Made by a program: the position numbers and the translations under genes. Below, in pieces: positions 35,661-52,465 of a stretch of 64,000 nucleotides of DNA. Source of the DNA: a virus (taxonomy: Duplodnaviria; Caudoviricetes); the IMG/VR virus record IMGVR_UViG_3300013368_000005, positions 1 through 64,000 of that record. One strand, written 5' to 3'. The notes below the pieces were generated by a model. The model was given only the letters and a program-made list of their open reading frames with translations, made no database searches and was not told the DNA's origin. Positions within the stretch are counted from its first letter, which is position 1; every line of letters begins with the position of its first letter.

Positions 35661-35710
35661 TATCCTTACCTCCAAATTATTTATATTTATTATAAAGTTA
35701 CATAGACAGT

Positions 35711-35795
35711 AAAAAGGTAGTACAACTATGTGTACTACCTTTTTGGCAACTTGCGATTTAAATTTAATATAAATGTAGACGGGGTAATATTATTT
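35711..35795 (-). ncRNA. candidate late small RNA (about 85 nt)
   Basis: AACA-ATATAA-TA at 35806-35795 reading into terminator AAAAAGGTAGTACA-catagt-TGTACTACCTTTTT; no ORF. Confidence 0.4.
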
Positions 35796-35816
35796 ATTAT
35801 ATTGTTATTTGATTAA

Positions 35817-36626
35817 TTATTTAAATATGTTATTATATTCACATATTGTTAAAATGTCATTAAAAATTTCTTCTTCTGTTCTAATACTATTATTATCAGT
35901 ACATTTTACTACTTCATAACCCATAATATCTATTACTGTTTTTGAACTTTCTTCTACTAATTTCATAAAATTATAATTATTTTCATGTTCATCTTTCTTA
36001 CCATTAGTTTTCAATTTTCTTTTTTGCATCAATTCATAAGAGATGTCTATAGGCATATCCATAAATATACATAAATCTTCTTTTGGAAGGTCTAAGTGGA
36101 AATATTCAACCTTACAAATATTTTGAATAAAATCATGTTCATTATACTCCTTCTTGAAGATATTATAATCCATTTTATAATATTTATCATACTCTGGTAC
36201 TTTTTCATAATCTAATTTATAAAGATCAGTCTCTATACCATATAGCATTCGTCTATAATTATAAACATGTTTTGCTATTTCTTTAACTTTTGCAGTCTGA
36301 AATGTTAAATTTGAACCTATATATCTATCAAATATAATATACCATCCTTTTTCTAATAATTTATTTATTTCTAATTTAATTATAGAGTCCATTCTGTCTA
36401 AAGAATAGCAGTATGAAGCTTTATATGGATCAATATAAGATGCATTTCCATATGCCCCTGCTAAATACTCTTTTATAAAAAATGAAGATGGTGAATGATA
36501 ATTTGGAAATGAAAAATGTAATACTTTATTAGTTATATTACTATTTATATAGTGTTCTAATTTAATTGAATTTGTTTCTTTGAAGGAATAATCTAATCCC
36601 TCGAATACTATTAATTTACCTTTCAT
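35817..36626 (-). CDS. tmk: thymidylate kinase-like dNMP kinase with divergent P-loop
   Basis: GKLIVFEGLDYSFKET, FSFP, IFDRY; late promoter AACA-ATAAAG-TA. Confidence 0.75.
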   Translation of the reverse strand: MKGKLIVFEGLDYSFKETNSIKLEHYINSNITNKVLHFSFPNYHSPSSFFIKEYLAGAYGNASYIDPYKASYCYSLDRMDSIIKLEINKLLEKGWYIIFDRYIGSNLTFQTAKVKEIAKHVYNYRRMLYGIETDLYKLDYEKVPEYDKYYKMDYNIFKKEYNEHDFIQNICKVEYFHLDLPKEDLCIFMDMPIDISYELMQKRKLKTNGKKDEHENNYNFMKLVEESSKTVIDIMGYEVVKCTDNNSIRTEEEIFNDILTICEYNNIFK

Positions 36627-40280: not shown

Positions 40281-40355
40281 AATTAATCTCTCCTTTTTTA
40301 TTTTTTAGAAATGTATTAGAAGATTAGAAATAATCTAATCTTCTTTTTAAATAAA

Positions 40356-40492
40356 TTAAAATCTCACGAAGTGAGATTTATCAGCCTCCCCTTCATGTCT
40401 TCTAAAACATGAATAATTTACATTTATATTGTATTTATAATAATGAATTATAAATTAATTCAATGTTTTATACTTTGTAAAAATGTACAAGC
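40356..40492 (-). repeat. left copy of a ~140-bp inverted repeat (late promoter + structured RNA)
   Basis: reverse complement shares GCTTGTACATTTTTACAAAGTAYAAAACATT and AAATCTCACTTCGTGAGATTTT with 42071-42216. Confidence 0.85.
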
Positions 40493-41288: not shown

Positions 41289-41441
41289 TTGTAATCCCCC
41301 TCAAAAATATATTTTTTTATTCAATATTATAATATATCATTGTATTATGCTTTACCATTTTTTCTATGTTCCTAGAAAAATGGTTATAATTATATATTAT
41401 AGTAATGAATAAATATAGAAAATATTAAAGGAGAGATTAAT

Positions 41442-42062
41442 ATGAATAAATTAATAGTAGATCCAAATAACTATAGTATAGTATCAATTTCAAATGAGAC
41501 ATCCTTTGAAGAAACAGAGACTGATAAACTATGTAGACATATACTAGGTTTATTTAGTGATCTTAAAGATTTAGAGATAGAAATTGATGTGGATAAATAT
41601 AACAATTTTGAAGCATGTTTTCGTACAGAAAAAATAAATAATAAAAAAAGACAATATAAATATATTATAAATCTTAGACCATTTCAAGACTGTTTTAAAA
41701 AGGGAAGCATTTGTAGAAATAGTAGAGAAATTATAGAAGGTTTGGAGATAGATGAACTTTTAAGAATAAATAGTATTGATGAAAAATATAAATTTAAAGT
41801 TTACTATTTATTTTATATATTACATGAAATTGGACATATTAAGCATTTTAATATAAATGAACGATATATCAATAAATTAAAATTGGCAGATGTGTCTCTA
41901 GATTGTTCATTGCGTCAAACTTATTATAATGCTAATAAGAAACATTCTTATACGATATATCAATATGGATTATTCGAATCCCAAGCAAATTTATTTGCAT
42001 TTAAATATTTCACATATATTTGGAATAATGTATTAAAAAATACAAATTTTCTTAATATGTAA
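41442..42062 (+). CDS. HExxH zinc-metallopeptidase-like protein (ImmA/IrrE-like)
   Basis: ILHEIGH...FESQANLFA; early motif at 41393-41400. Confidence 0.6.
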   Translation: MNKLIVDPNNYSIVSISNETSFEETETDKLCRHILGLFSDLKDLEIEIDVDKYNNFEACFRTEKINNKKRQYKYIINLRPFQDCFKKGSICRNSREIIEGLEIDELLRINSIDEKYKFKVYYLFYILHEIGHIKHFNINERYINKLKLADVSLDCSLRQTYYNANKKHSYTIYQYGLFESQANLFAFKYFTYIWNNVLKNTNFLNM

Positions 42063-42070
42063 AAATATAG

Positions 42071-42216
42071 GCTTGTACATTTTTACAAAGTACAAAACAT
42101 TTAAATATTTATATTTAAATTATATAAATTTAATATATAAGTATAATGATGTAAATATTCATGTTTCTACAATACATGATGAGAGGATTGTCAAATCTCA
42201 CTTCGTGAGATTTTAA
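42071..42216 (+). repeat. right copy of the ~140-bp inverted repeat
   Basis: see left copy; AACA-TTTAAA-TA at 42096-42107; hairpin at 42193-42214. Confidence 0.85.
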
Positions 42217-42230
42217 AGGAGGAATAAAAA

Positions 42231-42407
42231 ATGAAAGATTCTAAAATAAATCTAAATAATAAGTGGTTTACTATAGAACGAGATCATTACAAATGTAAAT
42301 TATGTAAATTCTATTATAAAATATACAATGAAACTGAACCCAGTAAATGTCCTAATTATAATCATAGTACTAAAGATGAACAAAAGAATATCAATAAAAA
42401 TAAATAA
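42231..42407 (+). CDS. 58-aa zinc-ribbon-like protein (not in the ORF track)
   Basis: SD AAGGAGG; YKCKLCKF...SKCPNYNH; terminator near 42416-42449. Confidence 0.6.
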   Translation: MKDSKINLNNKWFTIERDHYKCKLCKFYYKIYNETEPSKCPNYNHSTKDEQKNINKNK

Positions 42408-42498
42408 TATATTAAATAAACTAGGGAAACAATCTCTAGTTTATTTTTTGTGTATTTACATAAGATAACATTCATATAATTATGAAAGGAGTGATACT

Positions 42499-43311
42499 AT
42501 GAGAGATCCACAAAATATTCAACAAGTCGAATATAATGGAAATAAAATAAGTATAGTTAAAATGGACGATATACCTCCATTTGATATTCCAGACTATGAC
42601 CTATTAGATAGTAAAGAACTTAGTAAATATTTTGATGATATTGAAAGAAAAATAATAAGAAATTCATTTGAATATAGACAAATGGTGAATTTCTTAAGAG
42701 AAAATTTAGATATGAATAAATGTAGTTTCTATCAGAATGTAAATAATATAGATACATTTAAAATAAAAATACATTTACATCATGAACCATTTACATTATA
42801 TGATTTAGTTACTATAGTGTATAATAAGAGATTATTTTTCCATGAATGTTTAGAAGCAGAATTAGTAGCTAAAGAAGTTATGTACCTACATTACAAATTA
42901 ATGGTAGGTCTTATACCTTTAGCAGAAACTGTACATGAATTAGTACACAATAGCTATTTATTTGTTCCTATGGATAAAGTATTTGGAAATGTACAAGAAT
43001 TTATAAACATGTATGAAGATTTTATGTCTCCAGAACAATTAGATTTACTAGAAAGAAATCGACAATATACTAAAACTTACTGTGAAGAATTATCAAATAA
43101 CCATATCCTAAATAAAAACTATATATATTTAGATTTAACAGGTGCATATGATATTCCTACATTAGAAGAAGTAGTAGATTCTATGAATGCGAAGATAAAG
43201 GAGATAAAAGGGGATACCTCATCTATATATGTAGAAGAGAAGCCAAAAAAACAATTACAGCAGATGGTATCTTTTGGACAAGCACCTGATAGTGTTTTAC
43301 CTGATAAATAA
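42499..43311 (+). CDS. HNH-like protein, paralog A
   Basis: IHLHHEP...LIPLAETVHELVH; late promoter AACA-TTCATA-TA. Confidence 0.5.
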   Translation: MRDPQNIQQVEYNGNKISIVKMDDIPPFDIPDYDLLDSKELSKYFDDIERKIIRNSFEYRQMVNFLRENLDMNKCSFYQNVNNIDTFKIKIHLHHEPFTLYDLVTIVYNKRLFFHECLEAELVAKEVMYLHYKLMVGLIPLAETVHELVHNSYLFVPMDKVFGNVQEFINMYEDFMSPEQLDLLERNRQYTKTYCEELSNNHILNKNYIYLDLTGAYDIPTLEEVVDSMNAKIKEIKGDTSSIYVEEKPKKQLQQMVSFGQAPDSVLPDK

Positions 43312-43449
43312 AATCTTAAACTATTTATTATTATGCACCTATATATTATTTATATTTATTATTTTTTATATATTTTTTTACATGAATATAGATGACTAAA
43401 ATAGATATAATAAACATTATATTAATTAATCTATAAAGGAGGAATAAAA

Positions 43450-43947
43450 ATGGCAGATTTATTTACTAAAAGTATAATTGATATTTTAAATGAAGCATCA
43501 GATTGTGAAGCTTGTTCTAATGAAGAATTAGAACTTGATGGGGAATTAGAAGATGAATACGATGATGTAGAAGAATTAGAAGACGATATAGAATATACTG
43601 AAGAAATGGTTAATGTAATATTACAAGAATCAAATTCACAAACTAAATATTTGATAGAATATGATAATCTTTGCAAATTGATGGAGTCTAAACGCATGGA
43701 TATAAAGGAGGCTATGATATCAGTTTGTGAGCATAACCAAATTTCATTCAGTCACGCATACCTTGTATTAGAATCCGATGAAACTTTCGCAGAAGCATTA
43801 AATGAAGCAAAAGCATCAATAAAATATGCAAATAACCCGATAGATAAAACAAAAAATAAAAAGAAAGTAGGAAAGGTTTACGATACTTTCAAGGATATAA
43901 AGAATAAAGGAATAAAAGTATTAAAGAAAAAATCTAAGAAAAAATAA
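43450..43947 (+). CDS. acidic/basic late protein (prohead core or scaffold-like)
   Basis: LNEA/LQES motifs, acidic N-terminus, Lys-rich C-terminus; late promoter AACA-TTATAT-TA. Confidence 0.5.
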   Translation: MADLFTKSIIDILNEASDCEACSNEELELDGELEDEYDDVEELEDDIEYTEEMVNVILQESNSQTKYLIEYDNLCKLMESKRMDIKEAMISVCEHNQISFSHAYLVLESDETFAEALNEAKASIKYANNPIDKTKNKKKVGKVYDTFKDIKNKGIKVLKKKSKKK

Positions 43948-43964
43948 TTATATAACATATATTT

Positions 43965-44058
43965 AAAAAATATAATATTTTTTTATTTTCCTTTCTAAGT
44001 TATATTTAAACCAGATATATAAATGAATATAGTTTTCTATATTCATTTATATTATTTT
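43965..44058 (+). ncRNA. candidate small RNA 1
   Basis: AACA-TATATT-TA (43954-43965); anti-SD TTTCCTTTCT; 16-bp hairpin 44017-44052 with T-rich tail. Confidence 0.5.
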
Positions 44059-44080
44059 AATATCAATATAACAATAAAGT

Positions 44081-44166
44081 GAATTAGAAATTATTCATTT
44101 ATTCTATTTCATAATTAATCTCACTTCGGTAAAGTAGTATATCGTTATGATATACTACTTTTTATT
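44081..44166 (+). ncRNA. candidate small RNA 2 (anti-initiation-site)
   Basis: AACA-ATAAAG-TG (44070-44081); seed CATAATTAATCTC; 13-bp terminator 44131-44161. Confidence 0.55.
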
Positions 44167-44195
44167 ATTAAATAATAATGCTATAACATATAATT

Positions 44196-44287
44196 GAATA
44201 GCAAGTTTCATACTTAACCTCACCCTAAAGTTTTTATGATTTGAAATCAAATATAAAAGATAGAGATTAGTTTCTCTATCTTTTATA
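44196..44287 (+). ncRNA. candidate small RNA 3 (anti-initiation-site)
   Basis: AACA-TATAAT-TG (44185-44196); TTTCATACTTAACCTCACCCT; 15-bp terminator 44252-44287. Confidence 0.55.
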
Positions 44288-44310
44288 CTGTCTAAATATA
44301 TACATAATTA

Positions 44311-44318
44311 TATATTAT
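44311..44318 (+). promoter_or_regulatory. early promoter motif TATATTAT
   Basis: the same motif precedes about ten non-structural transcription units. Confidence 0.7.
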
Positions 44319-44371
44319 AATAATGAAATAAACAATAAATTAATATTAAAAAATTTAAAGGAGGAATAAGT

Positions 44372-44968
44372 ATGAAGTTTTATTTCGATACAGAATTTAC
44401 ACAATTAAGAAAAGAAACAACATTAATCTCTGTAGGTATATTATCAGAAGATTATTCATGTTCTTTTTATGCAGAATTAACAGATTTTAATCAATCTTTA
44501 TGTGATGATTGGATAAACAAAAACGTTATAGATAATTGTATCTATATATCTAGAAAAGGAAAACAACAATATATATTTAATAGAACTATAGAAAGCTCTG
44601 AAACAAATAATATATCAATATGTGGAAATAGAGAAGAGGTTTCGAAAGAATTAGTAAGATGGCTTTCGAGATTTAGTGAAATTCAATTTGTAGCAGATGT
44701 ATGTAATTATGATTTCGTATTATTAATAGATCTAATCACAAATGGTGGTACCGCATTCGACTTACCAGCGAAAATATCACCATATTGTCATGATATAAAT
44801 CAAGATATCGCTGATTTTCTATCTATATCTGATAGTGCAGCATTTGATGTAAATAGAGAAGAATTGGCTTTGAAAATAAATCCATATTTAAAATTAAATG
44901 AAAAGTCTAAACATAATGCATTATACGATGCAAGAATGTGTGCTATTGTTTACAAATCAATAAAATAA
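44372..44968 (+). CDS. DEDDh 3'-5' exo(ribo)nuclease (Rv2179c-like)
   Basis: YFDTEF, YDFVLL, HNALYDA. Confidence 0.8.
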   Translation: MKFYFDTEFTQLRKETTLISVGILSEDYSCSFYAELTDFNQSLCDDWINKNVIDNCIYISRKGKQQYIFNRTIESSETNNISICGNREEVSKELVRWLSRFSEIQFVADVCNYDFVLLIDLITNGGTAFDLPAKISPYCHDINQDIADFLSISDSAAFDVNREELALKINPYLKLNEKSKHNALYDARMCAIVYKSIK

Positions 44969-44988
44969 TATATAGGAAGTGAATCTAA

Positions 44989-45318
44989 ATGGGAATGTAT
45001 TTTTATAAAGGTGTACCTTTATTTAATTATCATACAAGATTTAAAGACACTGACATTACTGTATATAATGGATATATGGGTCATAACATAAAATGGTTAA
45101 TAAATGATTTAGAACAACAATTTACAAAATATAATAATAAAAATACAATATTAATTAATCCAGATAATGGAGAGATATGTGTATATGATAAAAATGAAAA
45201 ACAAGAATTAAAATTTCAAATAGAAGATAGCAAAGATTATCAAAATTTGAAAAATATTATTATAAATAATATGAATACAGTATGTATAGATCATACTGAA
45301 AATTATCAGCTATGTTAA
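44989..45318 (+). CDS. hypothetical protein
   Basis: 109 aa within an operon. Confidence 0.6.
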   Translation: MGMYFYKGVPLFNYHTRFKDTDITVYNGYMGHNIKWLINDLEQQFTKYNNKNTILINPDNGEICVYDKNEKQELKFQIEDSKDYQNLKNIIINNMNTVCIDHTENYQLC

Positions 45319-45371
45319 ATAAAGAACTTTAAGTTCTTTAATATAAAAAATGAAAATAGGGGGAGAAGGAA

Positions 45372-45683
45372 ATGAAAATATTTAATTGTCAAATCGTAAA
45401 AGGAGAAATAGTAGATATGTATGGAAGCGGTGTTGGTGAAGCACCCCAATATTTACTATTAGTGGAAGATAATGAGCATGAAGGATTAGACATAGAACCT
45501 TCAAAAATAATCTATTTAACAGAAGATTTAGCAGATGATGTAAAAGATATACATTATCAAATAATCGATGCTATGATAGATATGCTATCAGAAACAGAAG
45601 TAAATAATATAAGAATTAATAACTCTGAGTCAGCAATTGTTATAGGAGGTGCTGAAATTACGAGGAGGAAAAGTATTCTGTAA
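45372..45683 (+). CDS. hypothetical protein
   Basis: SD AGGGGGAG. Confidence 0.65.
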   Translation: MKIFNCQIVKGEIVDMYGSGVGEAPQYLLLVEDNEHEGLDIEPSKIIYLTEDLADDVKDIHYQIIDAMIDMLSETEVNNIRINNSESAIVIGGAEITRRKSIL

Positions 45684-45693
45684 GGAGAAAAAT

Positions 45694-46389
45694 ATGAATT
45701 ATGAAGACATATTTAATAAAAATACATTAAATATATTTACTGATGCTTCAATCAGTAAAATAGGAAATGAAACAGTTGGTTGTAGTGGTTGTATAGCCAC
45801 TACAACTGATAATTATGGAAAATCGATAATAGTAGATGAATTTTATTTTATAAATAGAGATACTACTAATAATGATTCAGAATTAAAAGCTATACATGCT
45901 GGTATATATAAAGCTATACAGTATAGAAATAATTATAAACAAATTAATTTATTCTCTGATTCTCTTGTTTCAGTTAAGGGATTAAAAGAATGGATATTTA
46001 ATTGGATTAATAATATGAAACTAGGAGTATTATACGGAAGTTCTGGAGAAGTGAAAAATCAAGAATTAATAAAATCTATTATATCGGATATAATAACTTC
46101 TCAATTACAAATTAAAATTTATCACCAAAAAGGTCATATAAAAATCAATGATTATGATGATTTATTAAAAGCTCAAAGAATATTTTTAAGGGAGAACAAT
46201 ATTACTGCTCCTTTAGAATTAATTAAAGATTTATGCTATTACAATGATATTGTAGATAATACAAGTAGACAACGATTATTAATATATGTAAGTGACAAAA
46301 CCCAATCACTTCAGTTACAAAAAAATCCTATAAGTCATCTTATAGATACAACAAGAATAAGGAATGAATATAGAATATTGGTTAAGTAA
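45694..46389 (+). CDS. rnhA: ribonuclease HI
   Basis: IFTDAS, TNNDSELKAI, LFSDS, HQKGH, NDIVD; ATG 45694 with SD AAGGAG. Confidence 0.85.
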   Translation: MNYEDIFNKNTLNIFTDASISKIGNETVGCSGCIATTTDNYGKSIIVDEFYFINRDTTNNDSELKAIHAGIYKAIQYRNNYKQINLFSDSLVSVKGLKEWIFNWINNMKLGVLYGSSGEVKNQELIKSIISDIITSQLQIKIYHQKGHIKINDYDDLLKAQRIFLRENNITAPLELIKDLCYYNDIVDNTSRQRLLIYVSDKTQSLQLQKNPISHLIDTTRIRNEYRILVK

Positions 46390-46403
46390 AGGAGATTTTT
46401 ATT

Positions 46404-46814
46404 ATGAAATCAGAAGACTTATATAAAATGGATAAAGCCTATGAATTATTAGAAGAATGTGAACCAACATATAAGAGCTTAGATATACTTATATGCTTAA
46501 ACAAACCATTATTTATTATGTATTTTTCTAGTATTGATATCTTATTAAATAATGATGAAAAATATAATCGGTTTAACACTGCTATTGATAATTTAACTAA
46601 ACCAATGTATGATATTTTATCAACAGTAGAGCATAGTATTGATAAAGAAAAAATAATGAATATGAAAGAACTTTTAAAGATATGTATAATACATGAAGTA
46701 TTATGTTTAGTATCATCTGAAGAAGTATTCGATAAGCCATCTTCTATGAATTGTTTAGATAATTTAGTAAATAGTATTTTTACTGGGTTTAGTAAAATAA
46801 AAGGTTATTTTTAG
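46404..46814 (+). CDS. hypothetical protein
   Basis: SD AAGGAG; hairpin at 46844-46871 downstream. Confidence 0.65.
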   Translation: MKSEDLYKMDKAYELLEECEPTYKSLDILICLNKPLFIMYFSSIDILLNNDEKYNRFNTAIDNLTKPMYDILSTVEHSIDKEKIMNMKELLKICIIHEVLCLVSSEEVFDKPSSMNCLDNLVNSIFTGFSKIKGYF

Positions 46815-46904
46815 CTTATATATATTTAAGAGAAATGTAAAATATAGGTTACTACAAAAGTAGTAACCTATTATTAATATTAAAAATAAAGGGAGAGATT
46901 AATT

Positions 46905-47726
46905 ATGAATAAACAACAATTAAAGCCGATGGTAAAATTTGAAGATAATTTACAGTATAAGAATACAACTTATACAGCAGAAACAATGTATAGTAAAATA
47001 GCACAAATTTATACTAATGAGAGATTATTAGAAAGTGGTTATCCAGAAAATGAATTAATGTTAAACCACAGGAGAATGTGTTTAGAACAAACTTTTAGAA
47101 ATAGAGTTCAATTTTTATTAATGCAAGTTATTGAGAGCTTTAATAATAAGGTATATGAAGTGAACTCTTTATTAGAAAAAACAAAAAGTGGATTCACAAT
47201 CTATAGGTCACATACAGGAACATTAAATGGATATATAGAGTCTAAATTTGATTATATATATGATGTATATAGTTATATGCATATATTAAATAATCCGATA
47301 ACAATTAGTGACATATCATTAACTTTATCTACACTGATGTATAATGCAATAAATATATCAGTGCAAATACCTGAAGACATGAGAGATATCTATTATAATG
47401 AGATGTATGAGGTTAAGTTTGATAAATATATGCATAATGTAGATCCAAATATATTATTATCATTTGAGCAATATAGGACAAACTTAAGTAAATACTTTAC
47501 AATGCTAATAATGAAAATGTTCGAGCAATTATGTGGAGAAGTAAAAACAATTTATTTAGATGCAGGATATCCTAGATATGCGGAACCTTGTAAGTTCTGT
47601 TCAGAAGAAGAACCATCTAGGGCAATACAATTACATCAACCAGTAAAAACAATTGAAGCAACAGAAGGAAAAAAACGTAGATATAGAAAACTAGATATTC
47701 CATTATTTGAAGAATTGGAAAAATAA
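46905..47726 (+). CDS. hypothetical protein
   Basis: GGGAGAGATTAATTATG start signature. Confidence 0.7.
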   Translation: MNKQQLKPMVKFEDNLQYKNTTYTAETMYSKIAQIYTNERLLESGYPENELMLNHRRMCLEQTFRNRVQFLLMQVIESFNNKVYEVNSLLEKTKSGFTIYRSHTGTLNGYIESKFDYIYDVYSYMHILNNPITISDISLTLSTLMYNAINISVQIPEDMRDIYYNEMYEVKFDKYMHNVDPNILLSFEQYRTNLSKYFTMLIMKMFEQLCGEVKTIYLDAGYPRYAEPCKFCSEEEPSRAIQLHQPVKTIEATEGKKRRYRKLDIPLFEELEK

Positions 47727-47759
47727 TTATCTGAATTTATTAAGGAGAATTAATTTACT

Positions 47760-48269
47760 ATGAATACACAAGTTTTATTTTCTAGTAATGATCAAACTTG
47801 GGAAACACCTTTAGAGGTGTTTTCCAAATTAAATAATGAGTTTAATTTCACATTAGATGTATGCTGCACCATGTATACTACTAAATGTAAAAAATTTTTT
47901 ACCCCAGAACAAAATGGATTAATTCAAGATTGGAGTAATAATGTATGTTGGATGAATCCACCTTACGGAACGGAGATACCTATTTGGATAGAAAAAGCTT
48001 ATAATGAAAGTTTAAAAGGAGCTATCGTGGTTTGCTTAATTCCAGCTAGAACAGATACAAAGTATTGGCATAATTTTTGTATGAAATCAGCTGAAATTAG
48101 ATTTATAAAAGGTAGATTAAAATTTGGTAATTCAAAAAATTCTGCACCATTTCCAAGTGCAATTGTGATTTTTAATAATAAAATAAATGAATTAACTGTA
48201 TCTAGTTATACAGTATATGGTAGATTAATTAATTTTAAGCTTCCAAAAATGGTAAGATACTTATATTAA
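47760..48269 (+). CDS. phage DNA N6-adenine methyltransferase (Dam-like)
   Basis: WETP, FTLDVC, WMNPPYG, LIPARTDT, RFIKGRLKF. Confidence 0.85.
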   Translation: MNTQVLFSSNDQTWETPLEVFSKLNNEFNFTLDVCCTMYTTKCKKFFTPEQNGLIQDWSNNVCWMNPPYGTEIPIWIEKAYNESLKGAIVVCLIPARTDTKYWHNFCMKSAEIRFIKGRLKFGNSKNSAPFPSAIVIFNNKINELTVSSYTVYGRLINFKLPKMVRYLY

Positions 48270-48338
48270 TTTATATTATAATCATATATTATATATGTAG
48301 GAAATAAATATAAATTTAATATAAATGGAGGGGATTAA

Positions 48339-49103
48339 ATGTTTTATCAACAATCTCCTATAGCTATGAATATGGGTGGTAATATGAATCAAGGATTTAT
48401 ACCACCCAATCCAATTAGTAATGTAGCAATAGGTAGTAACGGGTATAATGGAATAGGAAATATGGGTTCTTATTATACAGGAACTTATAATAATTATTAT
48501 AATCCATATATGGCAATGAAACAGCAAGAAGCAATGAAAGCTGTATATATGGAAGAACAAAGACAACAAGTTGATATTATGAAAACAATATCAAAAAATG
48601 TAAATAAATCTTATGGGACAGAAGTTGATGATATATTTCTAAAACGCTATGATCCTGTCGATATAATTCAACAGAATAGAGATCCTGAAATAGATATAAA
48701 TATAAGATTAGCCAATGCACGTGCTGAAGCACAGTATGGAAGAAATCCAGAAGTAGAAGGGTACATTTACGCAATTAATACGATGTATGATAAATCTAAA
48801 GAAATGTATCCAGATAGTATGGGTATATATGAATTTAATAAGATATCTTCTGAAATAAATTTACAATATTTAGAAGAAGAATATAGAGAGAAACAAAGAA
48901 ATGTTGGGACACTATATAATAGATCTCAATATAATCAGCTTATATCAGAACATAGCAAAGCAAATAATTCATTTAGTAATGTTTTTGGAAATACAAAAAA
49001 CATTAATTCTATAGATGATTTAGAAGTTACATTACCAAGTCATTTAAGTAATGAACTTGCAGCTCGAAGAGAAATGTTTATGAAAAGTATAATGGGTAAA
49101 TAA
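48339..49103 (+). CDS. protein with N/G/Y/M/Q-rich low-complexity N-terminus
   Basis: early motif at 48285-48292; charge-free first ~60 aa. Confidence 0.7.
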   Translation: MFYQQSPIAMNMGGNMNQGFIPPNPISNVAIGSNGYNGIGNMGSYYTGTYNNYYNPYMAMKQQEAMKAVYMEEQRQQVDIMKTISKNVNKSYGTEVDDIFLKRYDPVDIIQQNRDPEIDINIRLANARAEAQYGRNPEVEGYIYAINTMYDKSKEMYPDSMGIYEFNKISSEINLQYLEEEYREKQRNVGTLYNRSQYNQLISEHSKANNSFSNVFGNTKNINSIDDLEVTLPSHLSNELAARREMFMKSIMGK

Positions 49104-49116
49104 GGGGGAATATAAT

Positions 49117-50454
49117 ATGGCAAGAGTAGATTTATTAAGTGTATTATATTCTAAAGAAAAATCACCATTAGAATTTAAATTCGATTCAATGTGGATGCCA
49201 TCAATGTATAATTATCTTACGCAACAGGATATACAAGCATTGTATAATATAGCATCCTCTATTAGATATAGTTCTAAGATAGAATTAAAATATAAACTCA
49301 TAGATGATATTATGACAGTAAGAGGATTTAAGAAATTTGCCTCTGGAACTAATAGAGTAGTTTATAGTTATTTAGAAGACCAATCATTTTTAGTAAAAAT
49401 AGCAATAGATAGAGTTGGTCTTGGAGATAATCCAGCAGAATATAAAAATCAATTTTTATTAAAACCTTTTGTATCTAAAATGTTTGAATGTAGTCCATGT
49501 GGGACTGTAGCATTTGTAGAAAGATTAGAGCCCATAACATCTAGACAAGAATTTTTATCTATAGGCGAAGATATATTTAATTTATTAAATGAATTTATTA
49601 TAGGTAAATATGTATTAGAAGATATAGGAAGTAAATATTTTATGAACTATGGATTGCGTAAAGGATTTGGTGTATGTCTCTTAGACTATCCTTATGTGTA
49701 TGAATTGGATGGAAATAAACTGTATTGTAATAAGCAAGAACTTGAAACAAAGAATCTTTGTGGAGGAGAAATAGATTATGATGCAGGATTCAACAATTTA
49801 ATATGTAGTAAGTGTGGCAAAAGATTCAAAGCCAAAGATTTACAACAGTCTGTTCAAAATAAATTAATTTTATTAAAAAATGAAGGAGAGATTGATATGA
49901 AAATTAAAGTTAGTTATCGTGGAGAAGTAATAAGAGAATTTAATTCATCTGATGAAAGTGATGTTATTGTTAGAAAGCAAAAACAGCAATCACAACCAAC
50001 AATGAATGTAAAAGTAAATGGAGTTCCGATAGGGGGTCCAAAAACTCCGATTAACAATGTAAGAGAGTCTGCTTTTATCAATAAAAATAGACACGATATA
50101 AAGGGAGATAAAAAAAGATATGCAGAAATGGGAAACGCTAAATCAGTTCAAAAAGATAATACACAAGAAATAAAAAATCAAGTATCCCAGGCAGATTCTA
50201 AACCTGAAACTATAGAAAAAACAGATAATATATATACTATTGCGGTCAAATCTGATCCTCTTAAAGTTCCTACAATAGATGCAGCAACTTTAAATTCTAT
50301 AGGATTATTAGATAAAGATTTTGAAGAAGAGGACTCATCGAATAAAGAAGAAGATAAAGACTTAGCAGCTAAATATTACGATGAGTATAAAGATTTTGAA
50401 GAAGAGGATAATTTTCAAAAAATTAAAAAGAATAAAATTATAGATAGATATTAA
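49117..50454 (+). CDS. protein-kinase-like fold + Zn ribbon + disordered tail
   Basis: ASGTNRVVY, LVKIA, NPAE, EDIGSKYFMNYG, LLDYP; C...CGG...CSKCG. Confidence 0.6.
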   Translation: MARVDLLSVLYSKEKSPLEFKFDSMWMPSMYNYLTQQDIQALYNIASSIRYSSKIELKYKLIDDIMTVRGFKKFASGTNRVVYSYLEDQSFLVKIAIDRVGLGDNPAEYKNQFLLKPFVSKMFECSPCGTVAFVERLEPITSRQEFLSIGEDIFNLLNEFIIGKYVLEDIGSKYFMNYGLRKGFGVCLLDYPYVYELDGNKLYCNKQELETKNLCGGEIDYDAGFNNLICSKCGKRFKAKDLQQSVQNKLILLKNEGEIDMKIKVSYRGEVIREFNSSDESDVIVRKQKQQSQPTMNVKVNGVPIGGPKTPINNVRESAFINKNRHDIKGDKKRYAEMGNAKSVQKDNTQEIKNQVSQADSKPETIEKTDNIYTIAVKSDPLKVPTIDAATLNSIGLLDKDFEEEDSSNKEEDKDLAAKYYDEYKDFEEEDNFQKIKKNKIIDRY

Positions 50455-50467
50455 TGGGGGGATCATT

Positions 50468-51130
50468 ATGTTATTCAATGGATCTATCTTTGTAACGACA
50501 GATTTAAATGTTGTTAGAAATAATTTTACAACAAGTAAAGTCGTTGTAATTGGAGATAATCAGCCAAGCAACCAAGAATTAGTAACATCGGTTGGCGGAG
50601 TATTAGCAAGTGTATTGCTACCTCCATATCAATCTATGGAAGCATATTTAGATAATAGAAAAGAAGATTTTATAAATCTATACTATGCATACTTATTTAG
50701 TCGAGAAACATTGGCGTTATTAGCAGCTCTGGTGAGAGCTATAATGAATGGTACAAACATTCTTATCTATATTAATGCGGATGAATATAATATGTATTTT
50801 GAAGCATTGTATAATTTTATAGCAATAAATTTTGGAATATTTATTGGAACTGGAACAAACCAATTTGGATTTTCAAACAATCCAATTCACATTAAATTTA
50901 TTTGTGATACTTTATATTTAAATGAATTTTTAAGTATACCAGAATTATTTGCATTATATCCTGCAGATGCAGATTTTCTTCAAGAAGTTGTTGTTAAATT
51001 AATAAATGAGTTAAATCCATATGTTGCAGATACTTCTTTTGAAGGTTATTGTAATTATTTTAGAAACTATAGAAATCAAATGTTAGCGAATAATGGTTCG
51101 TTCTTAAAACCATTGGTGCATAAATGTTAG
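50468..51130 (+). CDS. hypothetical protein (paralog of the next ORF)
   Basis: LLPP...FINLYYAYL...IMNGTNILIY. Confidence 0.65.
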   Translation: MLFNGSIFVTTDLNVVRNNFTTSKVVVIGDNQPSNQELVTSVGGVLASVLLPPYQSMEAYLDNRKEDFINLYYAYLFSRETLALLAALVRAIMNGTNILIYINADEYNMYFEALYNFIAINFGIFIGTGTNQFGFSNNPIHIKFICDTLYLNEFLSIPELFALYPADADFLQEVVVKLINELNPYVADTSFEGYCNYFRNYRNQMLANNGSFLKPLVHKC

Positions 51131-51591
51131 TATTTGGTGACTATACATGTTTGAAGCCAGTAATGAAGAATTTCTTTATATTTAATCTGGCTTCTTCATT
51201 AGAAGGTTTCGAAAGGGTAGATATAATACCAAGATTTCAAATGGAATATTCAAATAGAGATTTTGATGTGCTATATGCAAAATATATAATGGAAACAGAT
51301 TCAGTGTTTTATGAATTTATGAAAATAATAATTTCATTATATAATGGATTTGATGTATTTATATTAACTAATAGAAGCGGATTTTATGAGGATATTATAG
51401 AATCCCTTCAAAAGTTAATTCAGCAACGATATGGTATAATATCTAATATTATAAATGAACCAGATGATTGGAATTATGTCCAAGAATCTTGTTTTAATAT
51501 TAATGGTTTATATAATTTAGATATAGACAAAGAAAGATATGCAGTGATGTTTACAAATTTAAATTTAGATACTATACTAAAGTCATTGTAA
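51124..51591 (+). CDS. hypothetical protein (paralog of the previous ORF)
   Basis: IIPR...FDVLYAKYI...LYNGFDVFIL. Confidence 0.65.
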   Translation: MLVFGDYTCLKPVMKNFFIFNLASSLEGFERVDIIPRFQMEYSNRDFDVLYAKYIMETDSVFYEFMKIIISLYNGFDVFILTNRSGFYEDIIESLQKLIQQRYGIISNIINEPDDWNYVQESCFNINGLYNLDIDKERYAVMFTNLNLDTILKSL

Positions 51592-51643
51592 AATTAATAA
51601 AGTTAGAGATTATCTCTAACTTTATTTTTTCGGAGGTTTTTAA

Positions 51644-52465
51644 ATGAGTAATTTATTATGGAATAAAGTAAATTATACTGCAGATATAGAATATATAATA
51701 TCTAGTTATATTAGAGAATATGATATAAAAAAGGCAAATATAAATATTTTATATAATAAAGGAGTATTGACTAAGAATCAATATGAATATTATCATAGTT
51801 TAGAAAAGAAAAAAAGAGAAGTTAGTATAGGTTGTTTATTAAGAGATAATCCTCAATATAATAAAGTATTAATTGATGGTATAAAAGAATATAAACAGAA
51901 ATTCTTTGAAGCCAATAATATTAAATTTGAGGAAGTATTATCAATAAAAAATGATGCTGTATTTATAATAAATAAAATCCCTAATATAACTGTATTTGAT
52001 AATAATGTAGAATTTGTAAATAAAAATATATTTACGTCTTATTATAAATTAGGTCCAAATAAATCTGATATTGAAGCTTATTATTATTATGATATGGTTA
52101 ATAATACTGAAAAAATAGATATTAAAGGTATCAAAGATGAAAAAATATATTTACATGAAGATTACTTTTTAGAATTTTTAAAAGTATGTTTTTGTTCTGC
52201 TCAATCTGAAGGCATAAAACCTACTATAGATTTAATATCATCATTTTATAATAGATATATTAATTTGCAATTAGATATAGGATATTATAGAGAATTTAGA
52301 TCAGATTGTTGTTACACATTAAAAGGATTAAGCCAATATAGTATATTTAAATCTTTTAATTTGGAAGAACATAATAAACAATATGTAAATATTATAGTTA
52401 ATTTAAATATAATTAGACAACTTCATAAATACTTTTCTCAAATTTATTTTTCTAATAGTAGATAA
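51644..52465 (+). CDS. family-B DNA polymerase palm-like fragment
   Basis: IREYDIKKAN (motif A-like), LSIKNDAVF (motif C-like), DIKGI. Confidence 0.5.
   Translation: MSNLLWNKVNYTADIEYIISSYIREYDIKKANINILYNKGVLTKNQYEYYHSLEKKKREVSIGCLLRDNPQYNKVLIDGIKEYKQKFFEANNIKFEEVLSIKNDAVFIINKIPNITVFDNNVEFVNKNIFTSYYKLGPNKSDIEAYYYYDMVNNTEKIDIKGIKDEKIYLHEDYFLEFLKVCFCSAQSEGIKPTIDLISSFYNRYINLQLDIGYYREFRSDCCYTLKGLSQYSIFKSFNLEEHNKQYVNIIVNLNIIRQLHKYFSQIYFSNSR

Follow-up and report, generated by a model that had tools for sequence, protein, structure and literature searches.

An ORF-free gap with three promoter-hairpin units

The window analysed here, 64,000 nucleotides (nt) in length, is the first 64 kb of a 186.6-kb viral record from IMG/VR (IMGVR_UViG_3300013368_000005, estimated to be 75% complete; positions in the whole record are marked G000), and its G+C content is 22-35%. 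Between gene 43450-43947 and gene 44372, which encodes a DEDDh exonuclease-like protein, lies a gap poor in open reading frames (ORFs), 43948-44371, the second-largest of the record. It contains three head-to-tail units of promoter motif and hairpin that probably form a cassette of late, terminator-bounded non-coding RNAs transcribed as such, and two of these RNAs may act as antisense regulators of translation. An earlier note on this DNA had described such an array in a gap free of ORFs. No credible ORF is indeed found: ORFs of 25 or more residues are absent from the plus strand, and the minus strand holds only ORFs of 27, 31 and 29 residues. On re-check, every coordinate that had been given for motifs, stems and CU-rich segments was correct. 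The features of the gap and of the adjoining gene start are these:

43951-43965, plus strand: predicted late promoter P1, TATAACATATATTTA, TA type, +1 at A43965; fits AACA-W-N3-A-N-TAA and begins 4 nt past the stop of gene 43450-43947
43965-44060, plus strand: predicted unit 1 RNA, about 96 nt, doubling as 3′ untranslated region (UTR) of the upstream late operon; fold z -4.83
43987-43999, plus strand: CU-rich patch of unit 1, TTTCCTTTCTAAG, which occurs once in the genome
44017-44052, plus strand: hairpin 1, a perfect 16-bp stem with loop TTTT and tail TATTTTAA; -15.5 kcal/mol
44067-44081, plus strand: predicted late promoter P2, TATAACAATAAAGTG, G-start type with precedent for G starts in phage AR9, +1 at G44081
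44081-44170, plus strand: predicted unit 2 RNA, about 90 nt; fold z -4.55, seed unpaired in both minimum-free-energy (MFE) and centroid structures
44107-44127, plus strand: unit 2 seed, TTTCATAATTAATCTCACTTC, complement of GAGATTAATTATG(AAA), a signature of Shine-Dalgarno sequence (SD), spacer and AUG
44131-44161, plus strand: hairpin 2, a 13-bp stem with tail TTATTATT; clear plus orientation
44182-44196, plus strand: predicted late promoter P3, TATAACATATAATTG, G-start type, +1 at G44196
44196-44294, plus strand: predicted unit 3 RNA, about 99 nt; fold z -3.81
44207-44241, plus strand: unit 3 body, an imperfect inverted repeat (25/35) of the leader and start of gene 44372; top inverted repeat of the region
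44252-44287, plus strand: hairpin 3, a 15-bp stem with a tail usable either way; -17.6 kcal/mol
44306-44325, plus strand: predicted early promoter of gene 44372 (44306-44318), AATTATATATTAT-N6-G, +1 at G44325; fits the early consensus of the phage and lies 3′ of all three units
44331-44342, plus strand: predicted canonical late promoter of gene 44372, AACAATAAATTA; 3′ of all three units
44342-44376, plus strand: gene 44372 leader with its SD and AUG; second arm of the inverted repeat with unit 3
44155-44211, minus strand: SD (AGGGTGAGG) and 18-codon ORF MKLAIQLYVIALLFNNKK, opposite unit 3; feature of a rival explanation
44104-44112, minus strand: counterpart in unit 2, at the site homologous to the start of the 18-codon ORF, reading ATG AAA TAG

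Each of the three units is about 115 nt long. The AACA motif starts at 43954, 44070 and 44185 (spacing 116 and 115 nt) within a longer TATAACA that all three have in common (43951, 44067 and 44182), and lies 61-67 nt from the hairpin. When the three predicted RNAs were compared with shuffled sequences, giving the z values listed above, 0 of 200 shuffles folded as well. The CU-rich segments at 43987-43999, 44110-44127 and 44206-44226 are single-stranded in the MFE structures and, for the first two units, in the centroid as well. Direct repetition is confined to the promoter blocks (76-83%); outside them the units align at the level of AT-rich noise and the stems are unrelated in sequence. Signals and structure have thus been kept while the sequence diverged to near-random, which fits selection on the signals, as would be expected of functional transcription units. 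The anatomy of the gap is real and non-random, and the parsing into three head-to-tail units made in the earlier note holds for motifs, stems and folding alike.

All three hairpins combine a stable stem (-14.2 to -17.6 kcal/mol) with a U-rich tract, as expected of intrinsic terminators, which makes them candidate terminators of differing quality. Among the 8 nt past the stem, T is found five times at hairpin 1, six times at hairpin 2 and three times at hairpin 3, or five times at the latter if the AAAA:UUUU end of its stem is counted as tail. A stricter, G+C-based terminator scan was passed by hairpin 2 only. Hairpin 2 has its U-tail on the plus strand only, hairpin 1 is mildly plus-oriented, and the direction of hairpin 3 is ambiguous. 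The U-rich tails that had been attributed to all three hairpins are therefore good for the second and fair for the first, and cannot assign a direction to the third.

No known family accounts for the gap. Rfam 15 gave nothing at gathering score in the window and nothing at E<=1 over 42440-45800, ARAGORN found no tRNA or tmRNA match, and a blastx search with the gap sequence against some 950 proteins from four related phages returned no coding remnant (best E 6.6). Readings as a CRISPR-mimicking, ToxI-like, tRNA-like or retron element were rejected, repeats, Rfam matches or partner genes being absent. Tandem-repeat RNA antitoxins and CRISPR-like repeat mimics would have near-identical short direct repeats, whereas the promoter blocks are all that repeats in the gap.

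Genes 41442 to 52465, which surround the gap, are all on the plus strand, and a strand switch coincides with the cumulative GC-skew minimum at about 41 kb, 2.6 kb from the gap. Origin-associated promoters are known in T4 and T7. The AT-rich gap might on these grounds be a replication origin at which transcripts prime synthesis or open the DNA, or a packaging or other DNA-level site, the RNA sequences being irrelevant. We find this highly improbable: iterons and direct repeats besides the promoter blocks are absent, GC skew in this genome tracks gene direction, and the complementarity described below would be left without a reason.

Phage identity and promoter types

The window encodes an RNA polymerase (RNAP) beta-like protein of 1501 aa (PHROG E 2.5e-138) and a protein homologous to AR9 g242 that has relatives in the phage collection only among the AR9/PBS1, Staphylococcus S6-type, Yersinia phiR1-37 and Listeria LPJP1 jumbo phages. 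Because of these two proteins, one with group-restricted relatives, the phage is by its gene content a distant member of the AR9/PBS1-like jumbo group, with a non-virion multisubunit RNAP predicted to serve its late genes. No close relatives were found, neither by blastn in the phage collection nor among viral or metagenome contigs, the best having about 50% amino acid identity. Two relatives were used for comparison: G001 (222.7 kb, complete, about 50% amino acid identity) and the more distant G002 (254 kb).

In AR9, differential RNA sequencing defined the late promoter as AACA-(6N)-T-A/G with the final base as start site (Lavysh et al. 2017, PMC5312081), and AACA and +1 are required in vitro (PMC5449584). 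AACA at -11 to -8, six further bases, T at -1 and A or G at +1 are present at all three sites of the gap, so that the motif named in the earlier note is the mapped late promoter of the group. Counted over the whole window, AACA-N6-TW is not enriched (180 seen vs 172 expected); 43 cases of the late motif are found at -44 to -30 from start codons, with consensus AACA-W-N3-A-N-TAA, and the density of AACA-N6-TA in intergenic DNA is 5.5 times that in genic DNA (2.66 vs 0.48 per kb-strand). From this distribution AACA-N6-TA is clearly the predicted late promoter of the phage, and it covers unit 1. Matches in a sigma-70 promoter scan were no commoner than in shuffles, and that promoter type is not relevant to this phage group.

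Unit 1 has the canonical TA form and units 2 and 3 the TG form. Among credible gene-proximal late promoters the TG form is found nowhere in the window phage, in 0 of 37 cases in G001 and in 9 of 65 in AR9, where several mapped TG promoters are strong (PMC5312081). Intergenic DNA is enriched for the extended TAACA-N6-TGA motif by a factor of 6 in the window phage and of 25 in G001, and all its intergenic occurrences are in ORF-free surroundings. Within this subclade, the G-start promoter form seems to mark non-coding units. A further intergenic site of the extended form, the third, was noticed at G000 114170-114212 (minus strand; ATAACAATAAAATGA). Its +1 lies within the hairpin that terminates plus-strand gene 113242-114162, and it may give rise to a very short RNA or be no more than a chance match.

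The early promoter of the window phage has the consensus AATTATATATTAT-N6-G with spacer (AATAAT), for example at window positions 41388, 44306 and 53713 and at G000 67232, 125021 and 134207, and differs at position 3 from the AR9 early consensus, AAATATATATTAT-N6-G. It often stands directly 5′ of a canonical late promoter, an arrangement that would give dual early-plus-late control.

Unit 2 is complementary to translation-initiation regions

Complementarity was assessed between the single-stranded body of each unit and positions -16 to +6 of the 182 genes in which an SD can be recognised; 5000 genomic windows drawn at random, none of them opposite a gene start, served as controls, and duplex energies were compared with controls on a smaller scale. 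Unit 2 has complementary 8-mers to 45 of the 182 genes, 10-mers to 14 and 12-mers to eight, values that at most one of the 5000 control windows reaches (p<=0.0002), and it alone of the three comes into the top 3% of controls by duplex energy (p 0.03). For this unit, the earlier description of the CU-rich segment as a reverse complement of initiation regions is upheld far above controls. The core of unit 2, CATAATTAATCTC, is exactly complementary to GAGATTAATTATG; the record has this signature at eight places, seven of them real gene starts and the eighth the unit 2 site itself. Contiguous pairing extends over 17 nt with gene 142117, 16 nt with 104445, 15 nt with 46905 and 13 nt with 37917, 39136, 39783 and 67316, and the predicted duplexes with target gene starts range from -17.5 to -23.8 kcal/mol. 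The match ends abruptly at the 13-mer, with no decaying edges such as a relic would have. Most products of the target genes are of unknown function; one is a helix-turn-helix regulator.

The target signature travels partly with a repeated intergenic cassette. At window 46844-46907 and G000 144837-144898, 5′ of unrelated genes, a near-identical terminator hairpin (ATAGGTTACTAC...GTAGTAACCTAT) is succeeded by TATTAATATTAAAA and, after that, by the GAGATTAATTATG start signature.

Unit 3 mirrors the leader of gene 44372

The strongest inverted repeat of the region joins 44207-44241 in unit 3 with 44342-44376, 25 of 35 positions being complementary. Over its first ten bases pairing is perfect and spans the start codon of gene 44372, with 10 Watson-Crick pairs and one G:U over the AUG. 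Among the 182 initiation regions, that of gene 44372 is the only one with more than seven contiguous pairs to unit 3 and the sole 10-mer match. In addition, 44172-44200, around P3, is a 76% direct repeat of the promoter block of gene 44372 (44317-44345). From the direct repeat of the promoter and the inverted repeat of the leader, unit 3 looks like a copied promoter placed before an inverted copy of the leader, which suggests that its target, whether reached in cis or in trans, is local and not general. The A-to-C change between units 2 and 3 (CATAATT/CATACTT) is mirrored by the start of gene 44372 relative to the signature (AATTATG to AAGTATG), a single matching difference.

In the read-through RNA 44196-44400 the anti-initiation stretch pairs with the SD and AUG of gene 44372 in both MFE and centroid (z -5.04), so that unit 3 may act in cis on transcripts that pass its hairpin as well as in trans. 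Taken further, this long-range helix might be the whole function: unit 3 would be no more than the 5′ part of read-through late transcripts, folding onto the SD and AUG of gene 44372, so that only transcripts started at 44325 and 44342 are translated. It is in keeping with such a silencer that the U-tail is weakest at hairpin 3 and that the partner arm is the adjacent leader. Hairpin 3 is nevertheless strong (-17.6 kcal/mol, with CUUUUAUA on its 3′ side), and hairpins of this kind terminate phage RNAPs in AR9; silencing a gene that has its own late promoter 135 nt further on brings no clear gain, and unit 3 is all that would be accounted for. A purely cis-acting element is accordingly very unlikely in our judgement.

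The complementarity of units 2 and 3 has a second possible origin, and one that weighs against an antisense role, since the mirror image of an initiation region looks equally like a real or decayed gene start on the minus strand. Unit 3 reads AGGGTGAGGTTAAGT-ATG followed by 18 codons (MKLAIQLYVIALLFNNKK, a peptide with hydrophobic core and basic tail), unit 2 reads ...GAGATTAATT-ATG-AAA-TAG, and the spacing from SD to AUG in both is typical of genes of this phage. The 75478(-) RNA of AR9, described below, likewise lies opposite an SD and a short ORF. The seed pattern TTTCATAMTTAAYCTCAC also occurs in 23 unrelated viral contigs; ordinary opposite-strand gene starts are the simplest explanation of these, and they were treated as uninformative. 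The gap could on this account hold minus-strand mini-genes or their relics, perhaps resembling type I toxins with plus-strand antisense RNAs. In type I toxin-antitoxin systems such as bsrG/SR4 and txpA/RatA of Bacillus subtilis prophages, a short hydrophobic ORF likewise stands opposite a small antisense RNA that covers SD and AUG. The gap differs in that no promoter for a toxin strand was found, neither an early nor a late motif being present on the minus strand upstream of either start, in that the peptide has just 18 residues, and in that the second copy is dead, the unit 2 ORF being two codons long (MK-stop); a type I system in the strict sense is not supported. Against minus-strand genes more generally, the flanking genes all run the other way, hairpin 2 has no U-tail on the minus strand, the likeness of unit 2 to gene starts stops sharply at GAGATTAATTATG, blastx finds no coding remnant, and an 18-residue ORF made of I, L, K, N, Y and F is of the sort that AT-rich DNA yields by chance. 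We therefore hold minus-strand genes or relics to be quite unlikely.

Unit 1 and the operon boundary

Nearly every gene or operon end of the genome bears a hairpin of the kind found here. Hairpin 1 starts 70 nt 3′ of the upstream stop and thus likely terminates the upstream operon too; it is the sole terminator on offer for gene 43450-43947. Unit 1 is probably a 3′-UTR or terminator-associated RNA of that late operon, without identified target. Its CU-rich patch had been likened to the 3′ end of Firmicute 16S rRNA; the possible resemblance, over 10-11 nt of 16S and internal transcribed spacer, depends on the host and was not counted as support.

This setting suggests a simpler function, that of an operon-boundary insulator. 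Terminators would be stacked between the late operon 42499-43947 and the early-plus-late operon that begins at 44306, the AACA motifs would be weak or passenger promoters spread by tandem duplication, which the regular 115-116-nt spacing fits, and the RNAs would have no function in trans. A promoter before a terminator is found at 35795(-) as well, and units 1 and 3 lack above-chance multi-gene targets. An insulator leaves unexplained, however, why, in units that have otherwise diverged, TATAACA is preserved better than any other block, why unit 2 carries an exact 13-mer anti-signature and unit 3 a 35-nt inverted leader copy, and why TG-type motifs gather in the ORF-free units of two phages; nor does any other operon boundary of the genome have three terminators. 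We regard this explanation as unlikely.

Comparable units in the record and in related phages

The layout of promoter, body and hairpin recurs at 35795(-) and 120158(-) of the window phage, in a tandem array of G001 and at two late transcription start sites (TSSs) of AR9. The two orphan units of the window phage, at window 35690-35825 and G000 120055-120185 (both minus strand), have a canonical late promoter, a C-rich patch (UUACCCCGUCU or GUCCCCUUAAU) and, 62-69 nt further on, a strong hairpin. Neither exceeds controls in complementarity to initiation regions.

In G001, a 774-bp ORF-free gap at 82090-82863 (minus strand) follows the RNAP beta gene and contains three to four (A/T)ATAACA-N6-TGA promoters, each followed by a strong hairpin. 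The three predicted late units measure 148-281 nt and are highly structured (MFE -36 to -62 kcal/mol); two have near-identical CCCGTATGG...CCATACGGG terminators, and none matches Rfam. This array resembles the gap in its tandem units, promoter form, strong hairpin ends and lack of a credible ORF, and differs from it in the greater unit length (150-280 nt), in genomic place and in sequence, nhmmer having found no match between the gap and G001 or between the G001 array and G000. A tandem ORF-free array of promoters and terminators is consequently not unique to the window.

Among the mapped late TSSs of AR9, 75478(-) has a step height of 3757, the third highest in Table S3, and is labelled 'antisense g090' (PMC5312081). 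The sequence around it (KU878088.1, approximately 75400-75489) reads AACATATTAATA, then AAUGUCCUCCUGUAAUUUUAAUA, a 16-bp hairpin and a U-rich tail, all of it within the g090-g091 intergenic region, and predicts an unannotated RNA of about 70 nt, AAUGUCCUCCUG..., with a CCUCC patch. The 5′ part of this RNA is complementary by 6-mers to 110 and by 7-mers to 57 of 263 AR9 initiation regions (p 0.004 and 0.001). TSS 115851(+) has a step height of 278 and is labelled antisense to g142 in the same table; its predicted RNA has a CCCCUC patch, whose complementarity to AR9 initiation regions is not above chance, and a hairpin of -21 kcal/mol. Both AR9 units are like those of the gap in promoter type, in having a C-rich or anti-SD patch no more than about 20 nt from +1, in the strong hairpin and in the absence of an ORF. 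They are unlike them in being single, in lying on the strand opposite to the flanking genes and in having no sequence in common with the gap units, and they are known by mapped 5′ ends alone.

Directly 3′ of g242, AR9 has a 560-bp, relatively G+C-rich ORF-free stretch (207908-208469) under late TSS 207979, with no Rfam match. The TSS is labelled 'tRNA' (PMC5312081), yet the tRNA-Asn lies about 925 nt further on, past g243.

Proposed mechanism

We propose that the non-virion RNAP of the phage reads three short non-coding units late in infection, starting at A43965, G44081 and G44196, and that each unit would stop at its own intrinsic terminator to give an RNA of roughly 90-100 nt. Units 2 and 3 would be antisense regulators made from inverted copies of translation-initiation regions. 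The unpaired 13-17-nt stretch of unit 2 is predicted to pair over SD, spacer and AUG of at least seven genes that carry (G)GAGATTAATTATG, mostly in early-promoter operons, and could thereby block loading of the 30S ribosomal subunit in trans. Unit 3 would pair with the leader and AUG of gene 44372, either in trans or in cis on transcripts that pass hairpin 3. Transcription of the units, its ending at the hairpins and repression of translation by pairing are all deduced from sequence. On the same footing, an antisense action appears well founded for unit 2; for unit 3 it is plausible, with a local target, and for unit 1 nothing supports it. The earlier claim that each unit carries an anti-initiation segment is thereby narrowed to unit 2, with one adjacent-gene match for unit 3. 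To the combined reading, of three late small RNAs with units 2 and 3 as antisense regulators, we assign a probability of about 0.5.

Several results weigh against it. Unit 1, whose seed the earlier note had treated in the same way as the others, is no better than random windows, its complementarity being marginal by k-mers (p 0.02-0.09) and absent by energy (p 0.3). Unit 3 is at chance in the multi-gene comparison (k-mer p 0.3-0.9) and fails by energy too, so that its seed, like that of unit 1, is not distinguished from controls. Gene 44372 itself ranks only third to fifth of 182 for unit 3 by energy, and the case for this unit must therefore be made from contiguity, adjacency and repeat structure; moreover, the canonical late promoter of this gene is a poor fit to late shut-off by unit 3. 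The lean of unit 2 targets towards early-promoter operons is weak (Mann-Whitney p 0.047; Fisher p 0.17). The bare TG motif has no intergenic enrichment (0.25 vs 0.24 per kb-strand), which leaves promoters 2 and 3 to rest on the AR9 precedent and the extended motif. Nor is the locus conserved: no relative in the viral or metagenome collections carries the gap, the syntenic place in G001 is occupied by tightly packed genes with no gap between them, and G002 has no TG-type orphan units and a weaker enrichment of the late motif. The G001 array shows no anti-initiation enrichment, and what such arrays conserve does not therefore include the 'seed'. Of the conservation in relatives that had been suggested as a check, the promoter-terminator layout was thus recovered in G001 and AR9, and the anti-initiation seed was not in the G001 array.

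A more far-reaching version, which we put forward tentatively and rather doubt, is that a subclade of AR9-like phages uses the G-initiating TAACA-N6-TGA promoter solely for non-coding RNAs, with unit 2 as master late repressor of a regulon of at least seven genes and unit 3 as the product, for one neighbour, of the same birth process. If the three units act as proposed, the phage's own RNAP would drive a class of non-coding genes, one small RNA could shut down a set of phage genes through their common ribosome-loading signature, and such regulators could arise when a flipped copy of a leader comes to stand behind a copied promoter.

Relation to known regulators

Antisense RNAs of phages that occlude ribosome-binding sites are already known, P1 c4 being one; what would be new here is the polymerase, the timing, the tandem layout and the multi-gene target of unit 2. 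Like the proposed units, c4 of phages P1 and P7, sar of P22 and OOP of lambda are small phage RNAs that pair with a phage mRNA around its ribosome-binding site and so prevent its translation, and c4, encoded just 5′ of its target on the same strand (PMC12197685), has the same placement as unit 3. These RNAs belong to temperate phages, act in the control of immunity or lysogeny and are made by the host RNAP, c4 by processing from a longer transcript; the gap units, in contrast, belong to a jumbo phage of lytic type, have late promoters of its own multisubunit RNAP, stand three in tandem and, in one case, would target at least seven dispersed genes. There is no sequence or Rfam relationship between the two sets.

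In T4, RegA is a translational repressor and RegB an endoribonuclease that cleaves SDs, so that earlier mRNAs are shut off at their initiation regions by phage-encoded proteins. On the more far-reaching version, unit 2 would be an RNA counterpart of RegA and RegB, born of inverted duplication of initiation regions; the analogy is functional only, the proposed effector being RNA and not protein.

In large lytic phages, regulatory RNAs have hardly been explored. The literature searched contained no description of small RNAs in AR9-like phages, and in a 2025 review of phage small RNAs (PMC12197685) the terms 'jumbo' and 'lytic phage' do not occur. AR9 on Bacillus subtilis offers a culturable model, with the 75478(-) RNA of the same predicted design under a very strong late TSS.

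A further repeated element of about 140 nt is present in three copies, at window 42085-42235 (plus strand) and 40325-40475 (minus strand) and at G000 163343-163500 (plus strand). It has AATCTCACTTCG in common with unit 2, with no further alignment to the units. Its parts are a late promoter AAAACATT(T/G)AA(A/T)TA, an AT-rich spacer, a TTCATGT...ACATGA stem, a GAGG-rich tract and an identical hairpin, AAATCTCAC-TTCG-GTGAGATTT. In the copy at 42096 this hairpin adjoins the SD of a 58-aa gene, and the element may be a leader, an attenuator or another family of non-coding units.

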